DNA of 27,805 nucleotides, from positions 1 to 27,805 of the forward strand of contig JBHLMI010000029.1 of assembly GCA_048938295.1 (NCBI GenBank), read 5' to 3'. The notes under the pieces are model-generated. The model saw only the letters and a list, made by a program, of their open reading frames with translations, did no database searches and was not told the origin of the DNA. Origin of the DNA: Promethearchaeota archaeon. Its GTDB lineage: Archaea; Asgardarchaeota; Hermodarchaeia; Hermodarchaeales; Hermodarchaeaceae. The number at the start of each line of letters is the position of its first letter. The first letter of the stretch is position 1. Of this stretch, positions 8,885 to 27,805 are shown piece after piece. The position numbers and the translations under genes were made by a program.

Positions 8885-10309
8885 TTAAGTTAATGTCATA
8901 AATGGTAGTACTGCACGCGTAAGAATCCATAATGCCTGTGCTCCAATCTGTGTTGAGCCGGTTCTAGAAACATCAATAACCGGTAATTTCGAAGAGAGTT
9001 GATTTTCTGATAAATAGTAACGAAGCGCTGTTTCTGCCGATGTAAATGCTCTCGCGATCTTAGTGTAATATCGACCATTTTTCAAAAAGGCTTCAGGATG
9101 TTTTTTTATGAACTGGTTAACGCCTTCAACATGGCTTTGATGCGGTCCTGCTCTTGTATATGACTGACTCACTTTTGCTTTTTCAACGTGAAGCGCAACT
9201 GCGAATATATCACCATGAAAAAGCTCTTCAAAGGTTGCTAATCCGAATCGTGATTCTCCTGTCGGTTCCTGTTCGAGGAAACGTGCAAGTGTTGAGAAAT
9301 AGCGATAGAGTTTATCACGGGTTTTCGTATAATGCCACCCTGTTTGGTCATGAAACTCGATGACAAAGAAGTTTGGTTCCAACAAGCCTAGTTCCGTCTC
9401 AGATAATTGGGGAATGGGTCTTCTGTCAAAAAAAACTTCAGAGGGGCTCTGTAAAAGTTGGCGTGACTGGTGAGTAGTGTAACGGTAGGCACGTTTGGAA
9501 ATACTAGAGGCAATGTTGCGATTAGGATCTACTGGGTCAGATATGATGAAAAAATCGTTAGTGAATTTTCGTTTCAATGAATCAGCATCACGGTTGAAGA
9601 AATCGAGTGGCTGTGGTGTTGACTGAGACAAGTATTCCAATGCTGGTTCTAATTCTTTTGTGTGAAATATTAGCATCTCAGTACTGAAACCCGTAAAGCC
9701 ACTCACACCAACTGGACTCGCATCTCCGTAGACATAAGATGTTTGGAAGAAAGCTTTGAGAAGACGGACATCATCCCGTTGGGCGTCAGTAAGATGCTTA
9801 TCCACAAAATTTGAGTGATGCGGCGTTCGGTCGACAGCGGTGATTGGACCATTGCTAGCAATATAGTCTTTGTTTAAATCGAAGCAAAAAACGATGTCAA
9901 CCTTATAATTATCTATTTGAGCTATTACGTAGGGATGTTCCGCGTAAGCAATTTCAACTTCTTTCGATCCTGCACTTTTTGCAGCGTTAACGGCTACATC
10001 ATTCACCATCTTTTTCAGCAAACGGCGAATCATAGGTTTTCTAGTTTTCTTGTCTTCTAGTGAATCTGACACAATTGACACCGGTAATCCGACGAATATG
10101 TCCAGCTCTTTCCAACCGCGGAGCTGTGTCTGTTTTCGACCCGAAGAACCTTCTAAATTAATAAACGCAAAAGTGATATTTCGCTCGGTTCCTTCGAATT
10201 CAATGGCCTTGCGTATTTTTTCGAAAACTGAGGTTGCTTCTTGAATATCAAACTCGGTTGGTCGAATTTCTTTCAGACACTGAAGCCGTATTGTATCAGG
10301 AATAGACAT
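8885..10309 (-). CDS. cca: Class I (archaeal) CCA-adding tRNA nucleotidyltransferase
   Basis: GS.....T.LRG..ELDIF, YAEHPYV, KVDIV, AVDRTPHH, DVRLLKAF, GFTGFSTEMLI, DPVDPNRNIA. Confidence 0.9.
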   Translation of the reverse strand: MSIPDTIRLQCLKEIRPTEFDIQEATSVFEKIRKAIEFEGTERNITFAFINLEGSSGRKQTQLRGWKELDIFVGLPVSIVSDSLEDKKTRKPMIRRLLKKMVNDVAVNAAKSAGSKEVEIAYAEHPYVIAQIDNYKVDIVFCFDLNKDYIASNGPITAVDRTPHHSNFVDKHLTDAQRDDVRLLKAFFQTSYVYGDASPVGVSGFTGFSTEMLIFHTKELEPALEYLSQSTPQPLDFFNRDADSLKRKFTNDFFIISDPVDPNRNIASSISKRAYRYTTHQSRQLLQSPSEVFFDRRPIPQLSETELGLLEPNFFVIEFHDQTGWHYTKTRDKLYRYFSTLARFLEQEPTGESRFGLATFEELFHGDIFAVALHVEKAKVSQSYTRAGPHQSHVEGVNQFIKKHPEAFLKNGRYYTKIARAFTSAETALRYYLSENQLSSKLPVIDVSRTGSTQIGAQALWILTRAVLPFMTLT

Positions 10310-22978: not shown

Positions 22979-23148
22979 GTAGCCTTGCTCCTAGCGAGGG
23001 CTCGGTTTGTCTGACTTACGTCTGAAAGCATATATTGGTTTCGTTCATCAAGGGCTTTGGGGGGTAGGTAATTAATTTCGCCCAATGATTTTTATGCAGT
23101 TGAAGGGTGTTAGGGTCACGCTATGAACTATTGGAGCAGAATCTCAAT

Positions 23149-26121
23149 ATGCCAGTTTCAGAACTTCCCAAGAAATTCGATTCTCTCTCCTTAGAACAGG
23201 AGATACTAGAGTTTTGGCAGAAACACCAAGTGTATGACCAGGTCACAGAGCGGCTTAAGAATCGACCAGTCTTCCAATTTCTTGATGGTCCACCTTATAC
23301 CACCGGTGCTATTCATCTTGGAACTGCTTGGAACAAGATTATGAAGGATCTGGTTCTGCGGTATCAGCGGATGCGAGGGCTCCGTGTAATCGATACGCCA
23401 GGATTTGACATGCACGGATTACCCATTGAAGTGCATGTTGAGAAGGAACTGGGCATCAAATCGAAACTGGATATTGAAAAAACAATCGGGGTTGACAGAT
23501 TCACCAAAAGATGCCAAGAGTTTGCTCTCTCGAATTTAGATACCATGACAAAGCAATTTCAACGATTGGGAGTCTGGATGGATTGGAATCGTCCTTACCG
23601 AACCTTAGATAATCCATACATTGAAGGCACCTGGTATCTGATGAAAAAAGCCCATGAACGCGGCTTCCTATACCGGGGACTCCGTTCGATTGATTGCTGC
23701 GTTCGGTGTGAAACAGCCATCGCAAAACGTGAACACGAGTATCGTACAATTGAAGACTATTCAATTTGGGTCAAGTTCCCTGTCATTAATCGAACAGACG
23801 AGTTTATCATCATCTGGACAACAACACCTTGGACATTACCTGCCAATATGGCGGTGATGGTAAATCCTGAATTTCAATATGTTCGAGTTCAAGTTGACAA
23901 GGAAGTATGGATACTCGCAAAGGGACTTGCGAATATAATTCTCCAAGGACTCCTGGACAAGCCGTACAAGGTCATTGAAGAAGTAAAAGGTTCAGATCTC
24001 GTTGGTCTCCGCTATAAGCATCCTCTAGTGGATGAGGTTCCTCGTCAAGCGAAATTCCACCAAGAATCCATAAAAGTTCATTCCATAGTGCCTAGCGACG
24101 AATACGTAACACTTGAACAAGGAACTGGCCTCGTTCATATGGCACCTGGGCATGGTCCCCAAGATTTTGAAGTAGGTGAACGGGAAGGAATTCCCATATT
24201 TTGCCCAGTTACACTTTCTGGCACATTTTCTGAAGAGGGTGGAAAATATGCAGGAATGAAGGTTCAAAAGGCCAGTGAAGTTATTCTTGCAGACCTGCGA
24301 AAGAAGGGCTTACTCATTCATCAAGATACCATTGAACACGAATACGCCCATTGCTGGCGATGTGGTAGCCCCCTAATCTATCTAGCCACAGATCAATGGT
24401 TTTTACGAGTTAGTGATCTTAGTAATGAAATCATCAAGAGGAATGAGGATATCCGATGGATTCCTGACTGGGCAGGTCACACATGGTTCCGAAACTGGGT
24501 ACAAAATCTGCGTGACTGGTGCATCTCCCGCCAACGGTACTGGGGTGCACCTTTACCCATCTGGAACTGTGACAAGTGCAAGCATATAGAAGTTATTGGC
24601 AGTGCAGACGAATTAACCGAAAAAACTGGTAAGAAGCTAGAGAATCTTCATCGTCCCTGGGTCGATGAAGTCACGTGGAGTTGCAGTAAATGTAATGGTA
24701 CTATGTCTCGGGTGAGTGATGTTCTCGATGTATGGTTAGACAGTGGAGTAGCGCCCTGGGCAACACGATGGGCAACCTTCGGGACCAAAGACTTTGATAA
24801 TTGGGAAGCTGCAGAGTTTGTCATCGAAGGTAAAGATCAAATCAGCAATTGGTTTAACACACTCTTCAACTCGACCATGTTGGTGGCAGACAGAGAACCC
24901 TACAGGAACGTGTATATGCATGGATTCACCACTGACGAACAAGGCCGACCTATGTCTAAATCAAAGGGCGTGGGAGTACTTCCCGAGGAAATTGTCGAGA
25001 AAGTCGGGGCAGACACACTCCGAATTTATAGTATCAAAAGCACCGGGCCTGGCGAAGATATGCGCTTCCTCTGGAAGGATGTTGAGGATACCCGGCGCAG
25101 CATTTCGATTCTGTGGAATGTCTACGTTTTTGCTACAACGTTCATGAAAGCCGCAAATTACGATCCAAAATTACATGAATTTAAACTGAAGTTGCTTCAG
25201 GATGAGGATCGTTGGATTCTTTCTCAGTTGCACTTGCTTATCAAGCAAGTCACTGAACGCCTGGACGAATACGAATTACCATACGTCCCCCGGTTAATGG
25301 AAGACTTCGTAGTAAGGGACCTCAGTCGATGGTATATCAAACTCATTCGTCCCCGAACCTGGGTGAGTTCTCAGGACGAAACGAAGACCGCTGCCTTCAC
25401 AACGCTGTATCATGTATTACGGATCCTTCTAGCGGTTCTAGCTCCTGTTCTACCATTCCTAACAGAAAAGATGTACCAAGCCTTGGTCCGACCCGTTGAA
25501 GCAGATGCACCTATTAGTGTTCACATGCTCTCCTGGCCATCTCTAGATCCGAATTTGATTAATCCTGAACTGAGCCAAGAAATGGAGTGGGTGTCTGAGA
25601 TTGTTGATGCAGCGCAGCATATTCGGCAACAAGTGGGACTCAAACTTCGATGGCCCTGTCAACGCCTAGTAATCTTGCCTTCAAAGAAAGAATTCCAATT
25701 GGACCACTTCAGCGACGTGGTCGCCAGTCAAACAAATGTAAAAACTGTTCAAATCCTCAAGAAAGTTAAAGGTGACGATTTGAAAGCGATGGAGCTACCC
25801 TTTGCTACAATATACCTCGACATTTCAGAAACCCCTGAACTCCGTGCTGAACGTCTTTCTCGAGATGTAATCAGACAAATTCAAGCAACTCGCAAAAAAG
25901 CAGGTCTTCACGTTACACAACATATTGAATTATTTGTGGCAACAACGTCAAATGATCTGAGGCAAGCAATTAAGGATACAGCTGATGCTATATCAACGAA
26001 GGTTGGAGCTTCTCAGTTGAATATCAGTGAAGAACTTCCCGCTCTTGAATGGACCGCCAAGGATAAACTCAAATTCGCAAAGGAAAAAATCAGCTTTGCC
26101 TTTTTAGTGAGAAAGAAATAG
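23149..26121 (+). CDS. ileS: Isoleucyl-tRNA synthetase (archaeal/eukaryote type)
   Basis: DGPPYTTGAIHLGT (HIGH), PGFDMHGLPIE, WTTTPWTLP.N, GTGLVHMAPGHG, DWCISRQRYWG, MSKS motif. Start is ATG 23149, or GTG 23107. Confidence 0.96.
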   Translation: MPVSELPKKFDSLSLEQEILEFWQKHQVYDQVTERLKNRPVFQFLDGPPYTTGAIHLGTAWNKIMKDLVLRYQRMRGLRVIDTPGFDMHGLPIEVHVEKELGIKSKLDIEKTIGVDRFTKRCQEFALSNLDTMTKQFQRLGVWMDWNRPYRTLDNPYIEGTWYLMKKAHERGFLYRGLRSIDCCVRCETAIAKREHEYRTIEDYSIWVKFPVINRTDEFIIIWTTTPWTLPANMAVMVNPEFQYVRVQVDKEVWILAKGLANIILQGLLDKPYKVIEEVKGSDLVGLRYKHPLVDEVPRQAKFHQESIKVHSIVPSDEYVTLEQGTGLVHMAPGHGPQDFEVGEREGIPIFCPVTLSGTFSEEGGKYAGMKVQKASEVILADLRKKGLLIHQDTIEHEYAHCWRCGSPLIYLATDQWFLRVSDLSNEIIKRNEDIRWIPDWAGHTWFRNWVQNLRDWCISRQRYWGAPLPIWNCDKCKHIEVIGSADELTEKTGKKLENLHRPWVDEVTWSCSKCNGTMSRVSDVLDVWLDSGVAPWATRWATFGTKDFDNWEAAEFVIEGKDQISNWFNTLFNSTMLVADREPYRNVYMHGFTTDEQGRPMSKSKGVGVLPEEIVEKVGADTLRIYSIKSTGPGEDMRFLWKDVEDTRRSISILWNVYVFATTFMKAANYDPKLHEFKLKLLQDEDRWILSQLHLLIKQVTERLDEYELPYVPRLMEDFVVRDLSRWYIKLIRPRTWVSSQDETKTAAFTTLYHVLRILLAVLAPVLPFLTEKMYQALVRPVEADAPISVHMLSWPSLDPNLINPELSQEMEWVSEIVDAAQHIRQQVGLKLRWPCQRLVILPSKKEFQLDHFSDVVASQTNVKTVQILKKVKGDDLKAMELPFATIYLDISETPELRAERLSRDVIRQIQATRKKAGLHVTQHIELFVATTSNDLRQAIKDTADAISTKVGASQLNISEELPALEWTAKDKLKFAKEKISFAFLVRKK

Positions 26122-26140: not shown

Positions 26141-26198
26141 CCACGGAAAAACATCACAGATTTCACAAGGGCACGTGGCTTAGCCTGATGGAGCGCCG

Positions 26199-26229
26199 AA
26201 CCGCTGTGCACTTTGCACGGGGTGTGTAT
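26199..26229 (+). other. Non-canonical-position (29/30) BHB-like tRNA intron, 31 nt
   Basis: Central helix GCGC (26193-96) with GTGT (26224-27), two G-U wobbles. Bulges CG^A and AT^G. Inner stem ACC/GGT plus GTGCA/TGCAC. The outer helix is weak (relaxed motif). Confidence 0.7.
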
Positions 26230-26237
26230 GCCTTATA

Positions 26238-26275
26238 TGGAGTCGCTCCGAACATTCGTTTGCGAAGCCTAGGTT
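26238..26275 (+). other. Canonical-position (37/38) BHB tRNA intron, 38 nt
   Basis: C32-T33-T34-A35 pairs with intron TAGG (26270-26273). Bulges are TA^T and TT^A. Inner GG/CC pairs and the outer C31-G39 stem are present. Confidence 0.85.
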
Positions 26276-26317
26276 AGCCGGAGGTCGCGGGTTTGAATCC
26301 CGCCGTGCCCACCACTT

Positions 26318-27805
26318 CTATTTTATCCTTCCTTTCTTTTCAAATTTCTTTGCTACCGTTTCAAAATCTTCGTGAAACGCTGTTTCCTTTGTTATTCTTT
26401 TACGCACTTGAATGAATACCGGAAAACGAGTAGCTTGCCCGACCACCAAGGCTTCTCCCACGCTGAGGCTCGATATTGATGTGAGGGTCGCCTTCGTGAT
26501 TTTTTCAGATGTGGCACGAATATGGTCGAGGTCATAGGGATTAGAAATTCGAAGAAAAATATTGGTTCCACACTGTGAAAGGACTGTTGTCGAAAGCCGA
26601 ACGGGCCGCTGCGAAATAATGCACAACGACAGATTGTATTTACGCCCCTCTCGGGCTATGGTTTCAAGGATTCCCTTTGAATAAGCTAACGCCCGACGTG
26701 CTTCCGGACAGTTGCCCGTGATAAAAGGCCTTCCATTTCTTCTGGCAACAAATGATCCATTTTTGATAGTTATGTCCCATACTTTTCCTACGTAGTTCTC
26801 TCTTGCAATTCTCCTTACATAAGCAAATTTCCGTTTAAACGAGACTAATACCTTGAATTGATTATTTTGTGGCACATGCTTTTTTATTGCTGATAATCCT
26901 AGTCGAAAACATAATTCTTGAAAATCATCAGCGATTTCTTCGTTGTGACCTGCATAGAATGTGATATACCTGTATCCACCCTTGCTATATGTGATATTTC
27001 CATTTCCTTGAACCAATGCATCGAAAAGAATTTTGAGCTGTGATAAAGATGCTTGTTCAAGAAGAATTCTGGGTATTCTATGTGGTTTCTTTTTGAGCCA
27101 AGAGTCGATTTCCTTCGATGCTTTACTTTTGAAATAGAAGTTATTTTCTCTAGTTCGTTTGAATATTTCATCCGGTCTATCGCGCTTATAGATGCTAATA
27201 TCTGGAAATCTTCGCTTGATAACAGTGGTCATCTCAGTTAGTATCTTCTTTTTCGCTTCTGATTGTGATATTTCGTAATTGAAATATTTCTTGTCCTCAA
27301 AATAATGTATGTAACCATCGGTAATTATCCAACTAAGAATTTTGAGTAAATCATCATCAATATCGCATTGCCCCTCTGATTCTATCTTAGTTATCAGGGG
27401 TATTCTTGAAGTACTTGGAAGACTTTCTGCATGTATAAATCGTAAACCAGACCAACACCATTTACGATCACGACCGGTTGTCCGAATATTGCAAAGGACA
27501 CGATGATCCTCTGTTACTAGAGCATCAATGCTCTTTTCGTTAGCTAGTTTTATCAATTCACCGTCATGATTTCGGACAATTATTCTTTCGATTTCGTTTA
27601 ATTCCATTTTTTCAGATTCAGTGTTATAAGAATATGCAAATTCTCCGATTTTTAGATCAGTATATTTCTTCCACCCCTCTTTAGTTAATATCTCGGTATC
27701 TTCACTCAAACAGAATTGGTGTGTTTCTTCGAGGAACACAATTGTGGGAGGGATTGTTCCGTCGCGTCTTAGGTCAAACAAATATCGGAGAACAGCATCG
27801 ACGAT
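26318..27805 (-). CDS. HerA/FtsK-superfamily ATPase (C-terminal part, 5' end outside the window), intein-containing
   Basis: Extein reads IVFLEETHQF|CPEARR...ILETIAREGRKY...IISQRP..LSTTVLSQC.T..FLRISNP.D. The frame is open to the window edge. Confidence 0.88.
   Translation of the reverse strand: MVDAVLRYLFDLRRDGTIPPTIVFLEETHQFCLSEDTEILTKEGWKKYTDLKIGEFAYSYNTESEKMELNEIERIIVRNHDGELIKLANEKSIDALVTEDHRVLCNIRTTGRDRKWCWSGLRFIHAESLPSTSRIPLITKIESEGQCDIDDDLLKILSWIITDGYIHYFEDKKYFNYEISQSEAKKKILTEMTTVIKRRFPDISIYKRDRPDEIFKRTRENNFYFKSKASKEIDSWLKKKPHRIPRILLEQASLSQLKILFDALVQGNGNITYSKGGYRYITFYAGHNEEIADDFQELCFRLGLSAIKKHVPQNNQFKVLVSFKRKFAYVRRIARENYVGKVWDITIKNGSFVARRNGRPFITGNCPEARRALAYSKGILETIAREGRKYNLSLCIISQRPVRLSTTVLSQCGTNIFLRISNPYDLDHIRATSEKITKATLTSISSLSVGEALVVGQATRFPVFIQVRKRITKETAFHEDFETVAKKFEKKGRIK
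26711..27712 (-). mobile_element. Intein (334 aa) with LAGLIDADG-type homing endonuclease domain
   Basis: Starts CLSEDTEIL (block A). Block B is LVTEDHRV. LAGLIDADG-like blocks ILSWIITDGYI and LFDALVQGNGNI. Ends VWDITI....FVA.....ITGN, followed by extein Cys+1. Confidence 0.92.

Follow-up and report, generated by a model that had tools for sequence, protein, structure and literature searches.

The locus and its neighbourhood

The window, by which we mean the whole stretch of 27,805 nucleotides that was analysed, comes from an Asgard archaeon near Candidatus Hermodarchaeota (best ileS locus 94% identical at the protein level). On its forward strand, positions 26169 to 26314 hold a genuine tRNA gene with two introns and an encoded CCA, separated by 47 nt from the stop codon of the upstream ileS. 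The features of the locus are as follows:

23107 to 26121, forward strand: ileS, isoleucyl-tRNA synthetase (IleRS), 1004 aa
26127 to 26141, forward strand: TATA-like box CCAACACATTTAAGC, at -42 to -28 relative to the 5' end of the tRNA
26169 to 26198, forward strand: exon 1, 30 nt; 5' acceptor strand, D-arm and anticodon-stem positions 26-29
26199 to 26229, forward strand: intron 1, 31 nt, at position 29/30, with a relaxed HBh' motif
26230 to 26237, forward strand: exon 2, GCCTTATA; positions 30-37, with the anticodon TAT at 26234 to 26236
26238 to 26275, forward strand: intron 2, 38 nt, at the canonical position 37/38, with an hBHBh' motif
26276 to 26314, forward strand: exon 3; A38, 3' strand of the anticodon stem, variable loop, T-arm, 3' acceptor strand, A73 and CCA (26312 to 26314)

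The product of ileS scored 903 bits with the TIGR00392 model against a cut-off of 621 and matched the Pfam domains tRNA-synt_1, Anticodon_1 and DUF5915. The TATA-like box is present in all members of the genus while its flanking bases drift, and A/T-rich boxes lie equally far upstream in the sister genus and in two further families of Asgard archaea, termed f15 and f2 here (f1 being the family of the present genome). Judging from this box, the tRNA gene probably has a putative promoter of its own. A scan for bacterial-type promoters and terminators found nothing, as expected for an archaeon.

The gene downstream, at 26318 to 27781 on the reverse strand, encodes the C-terminus of a HerA-type helicase together with a weak match to an intein N-terminus (E = 6e-4), and it may be an intein-containing ATPase. 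Elsewhere in the window, a gene for a CCA-adding enzyme lies at 8885 to 10309 on the reverse strand, though nearly all tRNA genes of the genome encode CCA.

Structure of the spliced tRNA

The 5' end of the gene, GGGCACG, is matched by CGTGCCC-A-CCA at the 3' end, and the T-arm, GCGGG/UUUGAAU/CCCGC, stands directly before the 3' acceptor strand. Removal of both introns in silico produced a 77-nt tRNA-Ile(TAT), which ARAGORN folded with all stems perfect. The spliced molecule has the cloverleaf features of RF00005, namely a 7-bp acceptor stem, a 4-bp D stem, 5-bp anticodon and T stems, and a discriminator base. When 1,717 splice variants guided by bulge-helix-bulge (BHB) motifs were scored by brute force, this model alone came out on top, with 7/4/5/5 pairs. 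The anticodon loop, CUUAUAA, is a standard loop of 7 nt with U33, A37 and A38, position 26237 being A. An earlier note on this DNA had placed a tRNA-Ile at exactly these coordinates with the anticodon TAT, and both the cloverleaf obtained after splicing and the invariance of the exons described below bear it out.

The nucleotides U8, A14, G18, G53, U54-U55, A58 and C61, which take part in tertiary structure, are present, while G19 and C56 are replaced by A19 and U56. The D-loop, AGCCUGAUG, carries A19 (26188) instead of the usual G19, and the T-loop, UUUGAAU, carries U56 (26294) instead of the usual C56; G19 and C56 are all but universal in tRNAs. Both replacements occur throughout family f1 but not in the homologues of families f2, f12, f15 and f20, and the other credible tRNAs of this genome all have G19 and C56. 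The two changes together look like a potential compensated tertiary pair, A19-U56.

Structure of the introns

Intron 2 forms a BHB in its full canonical version, hBHBh'. The central 4-bp helix pairs positions 26232 to 26235 with 26270 to 26273 (C32-G, U33.G, U34-A26271 and A35-U) and is flanked by two bulges of 3 nt each, at 26236 to 26238 and 26274 to 26276. The inner helix is made of 26239 to 26240 with 26268 to 26269 and of 26243 to 26246 with 26262 to 26265, and the anticodon stem lies on the other side. The pairing of U34 with an intron A in the central helix, on which the earlier note had relied for reading U34, was thus recovered. The 37/38 intron of that note was also found, as the 38 nt of intron 2, but its picture of a gene with a single intron did not hold because of the second intron of 31 nt at 29/30.

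This second element, intron 1, adopts the relaxed HBh' form, in which h' is present and the outer exon-exon helix h is missing. Its helix, 26193 to 26196 with 26224 to 26227 (G.U, C-G, G.U, C-G), has a bulge of 3 nt on either side and makes use of the D stem's 3' strand. The intron hairpin, 26200 to 26209 with 26215 to 26223, shows compensatory changes in five of nine pairs. As there is no outer helix and the central helix contains two G.U pairs, intron 1 would need an endonuclease of broad specificity. The genome has two genes with the splicing-endonuclease catalytic domain PF01974, located at C1:9416-9670 and C19:2925-3185 and coding for proteins of 188 and 200 aa, and two such genes would fit a heteromeric enzyme, a type assignment taken from the gene count only.

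The junction of exons 1 and 2 could be validated with homologues that are free of intron 1 (G018/L007 of the sister genus, LC30, and the homologues of f2, f15 and f20). In these, GAGCGCCGGCCTTATA is contiguous and equals the predicted exon 1-exon 2 junction, and the alleles lacking an intron at 29/30 read straight across it, which confirms the junction. The 37/38 intron occurs in every homologue found, in all five families, and no allele without it was seen among them; its junction is defined by the cloverleaf and the BHB geometry. Other introns are variable, being located in the T-loop at 58/59 in G007 and the sister genus, in the D-loop in G018, and in the variable region in f12, f15 and f2.

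Two metatranscriptome runs each gave one short unspliced contig from relatives, one of which extends upstream of the putative promoter, and no spliced joints were seen in the RNA contigs of these runs. We did not count the contigs as expression, since they could stem from DNA carry-over or read-through.

The hexamer CCGAAC occurs twice in the gene, at the junction of exon 1 and intron 1 (26196 to 26201) and inside intron 2 (26249 to 26254). Both copies can pair with GTTTG(CG) at 26258 to 26264 of intron 2, and ARAGORN mistook such a pairing for an anticodon stem. Competition for this pairing could make the two introns be spliced in a set order.

Conservation among relatives

All three exons were invariant in 9 of 9 aligned genomes, with variable introns, and the same was seen for 13 copies from the genus. 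The exons are 100% identical although IleRS is only 77-94% identical across the genomes compared. The anticodon TAT and A37 are invariant in the relatives. The variation begins at the exon borders themselves, as the bases flanking exon 2 (26229 and 26238) and the last base of intron 2 vary, i.e. three of the four splice-site neighbours. Among environmental contigs, 16 of the 17 variable positions within the gene fall in introns. Furthermore, the acceptor stem shows compensatory changes across families at 4:69, 5:68 and 7:66.

The two introns are not conserved to the same degree: intron 2 varies markedly less than intron 1, both in the nine aligned genomes and in the 13 genus copies. One may speculate that the precursor plays a part in anticodon modification, with which this conservation would agree.

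Alternative gene models

Neither ARAGORN in default mode nor Rfam at gathering and E-value thresholds detected a tRNA on the unspliced gene. The standard finders fail because the second intron, at 29/30, splits the anticodon stem, and with 69 nt of introns a failure of the unspliced gene in Rfam is expected. When introns were allowed, ARAGORN called a tRNA-Met(CAT) with a 49-nt intron, a model that is implausible with its G33 and a variable arm of 21 nt. Its intron-mode calls on the orthologues were inconsistent (Met, Gly, Asp, Thr and Ile), because these models use variable intron bases.

We considered on these grounds whether the locus might hold no working tRNA-Ile(UAU), either as a pseudogene or as a different tRNA reached through other splice sites such as those of the tRNA-Met(CAT) model. 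The ARAGORN call itself and the sub-threshold Rfam score of the unspliced gene are in line with this idea. However, the ARAGORN model carries the defects just described and changes identity between orthologues, while the other splice models score lower, need three weak introns and leave mismatched stems. A pseudogene is excluded by the invariant exons together with the compensatory stem changes. We therefore regard this alternative as extremely improbable, and the stretch is confirmed as a real tRNA-Ile(UAU) gene.

Decoding of AUA in the genome and its family

How to read AUA as isoleucine without also reading AUG is a classic decoding problem, which bacteria, archaea and eukaryotes have solved differently. 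In the present genome, AUA accounts for 11 per 1000 codons and about 15% of the isoleucine codons, with nine in ileS itself. The usual archaeal route uses tRNA-Ile2(CAU) and TiaS, and the earlier note had proposed that this lineage may have replaced or supplemented it.

The TiaS FLD domain PF08489 had no match in the genome, which is 91.6% complete, while four archaeal controls were positive. Four TiaS proteins from Asgard archaea, used at full length as tblastn queries against the genome, found no match better than E = 0.19. Moreover, tiaS was not found in any of the 18 other members of family f1. The check for tiaS that the earlier note had called for was hence negative, and its replacement proposal for the lineage holds, also because the UAU gene was found only in families lacking tiaS (see below).

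The companion check, for tRNA-Ile2(CAU), gave a less complete answer. A splice-aware tRNA census of the genome recovered about 41 anticodons and is incomplete. It contained tRNA-Ile(GAU) at C47:58531-58633, and the only CAU tRNA in it is the initiator at C47:76913-76987; no tRNA-Ile2(CAU) was found. The census did not find an elongator tRNA-Met either, which marks it as incomplete and leaves room for a split tRNA-Ile2(CAU).

Most of the tRNA genes in this genome have between one and three introns; only 15 have none. The T-loop is interrupted near 58/59 in tRNA-Gly(UCC) (G000:C57:16219-16280, reverse strand), tRNA-Gly(CCC) (C47:50303-50404, forward strand) and tRNA-Lys(CUU) (C7:43017-43114, forward strand).

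We also looked for the TruA/Pus1/Pus3 family (PF01416), which was found in none of the 19 genomes of family f1, whereas 38 of 42 other Asgard relatives have it. If this absence is real, pseudouridines at positions 38-40 would be missing or made by another enzyme.

Distribution across the Asgard phylum

A survey of relatives, as the earlier note had advised, was extended to 400 Asgard genomes, which were searched with two patterns built on the shared anticodon arm and the BHB. Reversed patterns gave no matches as a control, and 27 genuine UAU genes in five families remained after two chance matches had been removed:

Family f1: UAU gene in 17 of 19 genomes, this genome included
Family f2: UAU gene in 4 of 4 genomes
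Family f12: UAU gene in 2 of 3 genomes
Family f15: UAU gene in 3 of 5 genomes
Family f20: UAU gene in 1 of 3 genomes

All five families lack tiaS, and their UAU genes have in common the ileS linkage, the anticodon arm and the 37/38 intron. Closed genomes are among the carriers, namely G039 (Atabeyarchaeum deiterrae, CP147780) and the Odin-type genome G019. Matches in G010 (a second copy), G028, L029 and L042 were rejected as chance, as they fall in coding sequence and show no tRNA features.

As the immediate upstream neighbour of the tRNA gene, in the same orientation, ileS was seen in 17 of 17 loci of family f1, in both f12 genomes, and also in f2, f15 and f20. The conserved gene order in five families suggests that the linkage of the UAU gene to ileS is tight and ancient. 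In a quick IleRS tree, the UAU-linked synthetases all fall in one well-supported Asgard clade, together with an unlinked Loki/f9 subclade. This topology is compatible with one origin and one loss, without being proof of them.

Among the same 400 genomes, tiaS was found in 184; in the families that possess it, nearly every genome gave a match, with E-values of 1e-27 to 1e-46. No genuine UAU gene was found by the pattern survey in these 184 tiaS-positive genomes. Some 158 of the 400 sampled genomes have neither a detectable tiaS nor a UAU gene of this type. The patterns had no match in the tiaS-lacking families f9 (135 genomes), f30, f31 and f26-29, and no tRNA stands beside ileS in these families. 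In G055, no UAU tRNA was present among the tRNAs that Rfam can detect, which number only 28 there.

A CAU tRNA adjoining tiaS in L043 proved to be the initiator and does not bear on the origin of the UAU tRNA. There was no clean correlation of IleRS type with tiaS status, as Baldrarchaeum (f8) is tiaS-positive with a standard archaeal IleRS. In the tiaS-positive families f4, f7 and f18 (loci L091-L093), IleRS is divergent, being 37-38% identical to the IleRS of the window, and forms a separate long-branch clade apart from the other archaeal IleRS.

Discussion

We consider it highly likely that the gene encodes a functional two-intron tRNA-Ile(UAU) that is spliced, charged with isoleucine and used to read AUA in place of the agmatidine-CAU tRNA; splicing, charging and reading are what we infer here. 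Transcription would start from a separate promoter located shortly after ileS, and the splicing endonuclease would cut the precursor at both BHB introns, after which a ligase would join the exons. The product would be a 74-nt tRNA plus CCA with the anticodon loop CUUAUAA. The neighbouring IleRS would charge it with isoleucine, and the tRNA would read AUA through the U34-A pair, thereby standing in for the usual archaeal tRNA-Ile2(CAU) with its agmatidine made by TiaS. Circumstantial pointers to isoleucine charging and AUA reading are the adjacency of ileS and the frequency of AUA, 11 per 1000 codons. Several points count against this explanation: the RNA contigs are unspliced, the tRNA census is incomplete, the genome is 91.6% complete, intron 1 would call for an endonuclease of broad specificity, and U34, if unmodified, would be expected to misread AUG.

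The UAU tRNA could also supplement the usual route rather than replace it, working beside an undetected tRNA-Ile2(CAU) whose C34 is modified by a divergent TiaS or an unrelated enzyme. The incomplete census, with its missed elongator tRNA-Met, gives some room for this, as many tRNAs are hidden by two to three introns. Moreover, the large tiaS-lacking family f9, with its 135 genomes, and families f30 and f31 gave no UAU match, so that another solution may exist in the phylum. Yet tiaS is readily detected where it is present, and none of the 19 genomes of family f1 yielded it; the full-length TiaS queries likewise found nothing in this genome. The mutual exclusivity of the UAU gene and tiaS, with no UAU gene in 184 tiaS-positive genomes, fits replacement. 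We hence hold a supplementing role to be quite unlikely and prefer replacement.

A further alternative is a real tRNA with another decoding range or identity: U34 or U36 might be modified to read beyond AUA, misreading of AUG might be tolerated, or a different synthetase might charge the tRNA. Hints at a lineage-specific handling of this tRNA come from the unusual A19-U56 pair, from the strong conservation of the 37/38 intron and from the missing TruA family. Against this, five families show a tight, ancient linkage of the gene to ileS; this linkage, together with A37, A38 and the standard 7-nt loop with U33, argues for an ordinary isoleucine tRNA. For Nanoarchaeum, Korarchaeum and ARMAN, it is accepted that a UAU tRNA decodes AUA as Ile in this way (PMC8450103, PMC3239211), and UAU decoding has been shown biochemically in Mycoplasma mobile (PMC3575796). 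A different identity or decoding range appears very unlikely to us, even less likely than the supplementing role, and we retain the AUA-reading tRNA-Ile(UAU) as our interpretation.

Published surveys list very few archaea with UAU tRNAs, namely Nanoarchaeum, Korarchaeum and ARMAN. The earlier note had named the first two correctly and omitted ARMAN. The pre-tRNA-Ile(UAU) of ARMAN-2, -4 and -5 has a genomic UAU in lineages without TiaS and without tRNA-Ile(CAU) (Fujishima et al. 2011, PMC3239211). As in the present gene, the 37/38 intron of ARMAN-2 sits in a strict hBHBh' motif, and ARMAN has a splicing endonuclease of broad specificity (PMC3239211). However, ARMAN-2 has one 25-nt intron that is cleaved in vitro by the epsilon2 enzyme, whereas the Asgard gene has two predicted introns, of 31 and 38 nt, in a genome with two separate endonuclease genes. 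It also belongs to another phylum and shows a conserved linkage to ileS.

In Nanoarchaeum equitans as well as in Korarchaeum cryptofilum, a tRNA-Ile3(UAU) likewise removes the need for tRNA-Ile2(CAU) (PMC8450103, PMC6000648), and the UAU gene of Korarchaeum also has one intron. The UAU tRNA of Korarchaeum closely resembles its own tRNA-Ile(GAU) (PMC6000648), whereas the bodies of the UAU and GAU tRNAs differ clearly here. Unlike in these two archaea, the UAU gene described here is old and common to five families. Mycoplasma mobile offers a bacterial parallel, in which the C34-modifying enzyme was lost and a UAU tRNA compensates (PMC3575796). It differs in having a bacterial-type IleRS with a defined Trp-to-Arg adaptation, an unmodified U34 as determined by mass spectrometry, and no introns (PMC3575796).

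Multi-intron tRNA genes have been described for Asgard archaea in a preprint reporting D-arm and T-loop introns that standard tools miss and repeated gains at BHB sites (bioRxiv 10.64898/2026.10.13.758758). Our census shows the same heavy interruption; the preprint makes no mention of Ile, UAU or TiaS (bioRxiv 10.64898/2026.10.13.758758). For Asgard archaea, we found no report in the literature of a UAU tRNA replacing the TiaS route. The strategy itself is known from a few other archaea, and the gene is a sound new example of it and not a new kind of system. What it adds is the linkage to ileS that five families have conserved, a splice junction fixed by alleles without the intron, and the A19-U56 pair.

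The arrangement recalls the eukaryotic tRNA-Ile(UAU), with which it has in common the anticodon UAU, an intron that follows the anticodon after one base on the 3' side, and the lack of a cytidine-conjugating enzyme. To our knowledge, all eukaryotic tRNA introns lie at 37/38, and this position is also the default archaeal tRNA intron site. Being universal in eukaryotes and the default in archaea, the 37/38 position therefore carries little information. In eukaryotes, the TruA/Pus1 family makes the pseudouridines at 34 and 36, and this family was not found in family f1, a difference that renders the eukaryotic Pus1 route unlikely here, given the negative search of 19 genomes. The cytosolic eukaryotic tRNA has the anticodon psi-A-psi (PMC3575796, PMC8879553), and ARMAN-2 (PMC3239211) and Korarchaeum (PMC6000648) also combine UAU with an intron. 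For these reasons, the eukaryote-like arrangement put forward in the earlier note was an overstatement.

A far-reaching scenario would be that the ileS-linked, intron-bearing UAU tRNA is an ancient trait with a single origin, close to the root of a large Asgard clade, where it took over from agmatidine-based decoding, that its 37/38 intron is needed on the precursor for an anticodon modification that blocks misreading of AUG, and that it was the prokaryotic forerunner of the eukaryotic tRNA-Ile(UAU) with its obligatory intron. We judge this scenario as a whole to be unlikely, if somewhat less so than the alternatives weighed above. Direct ancestry to the eukaryotic tRNA is unproven because closed genomes from other lineages of Asgard archaea are among those of the tiaS-positive families.

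Since standard tRNA finders miss or mislabel the gene, AUA would look unreadable in the annotations of these genomes. The gene adds a Hermodarchaeota-like family to the lineages with a UAU tRNA, and at least five Asgard families without tiaS share one ileS-linked tRNA of this kind. With no tiaS found in more than half of the 400 genomes, Asgard archaea are a natural place to ask how a tRNA with U34 avoids AUG, and a place to ask whether the eukaryotic solution for AUA has archaeal roots.
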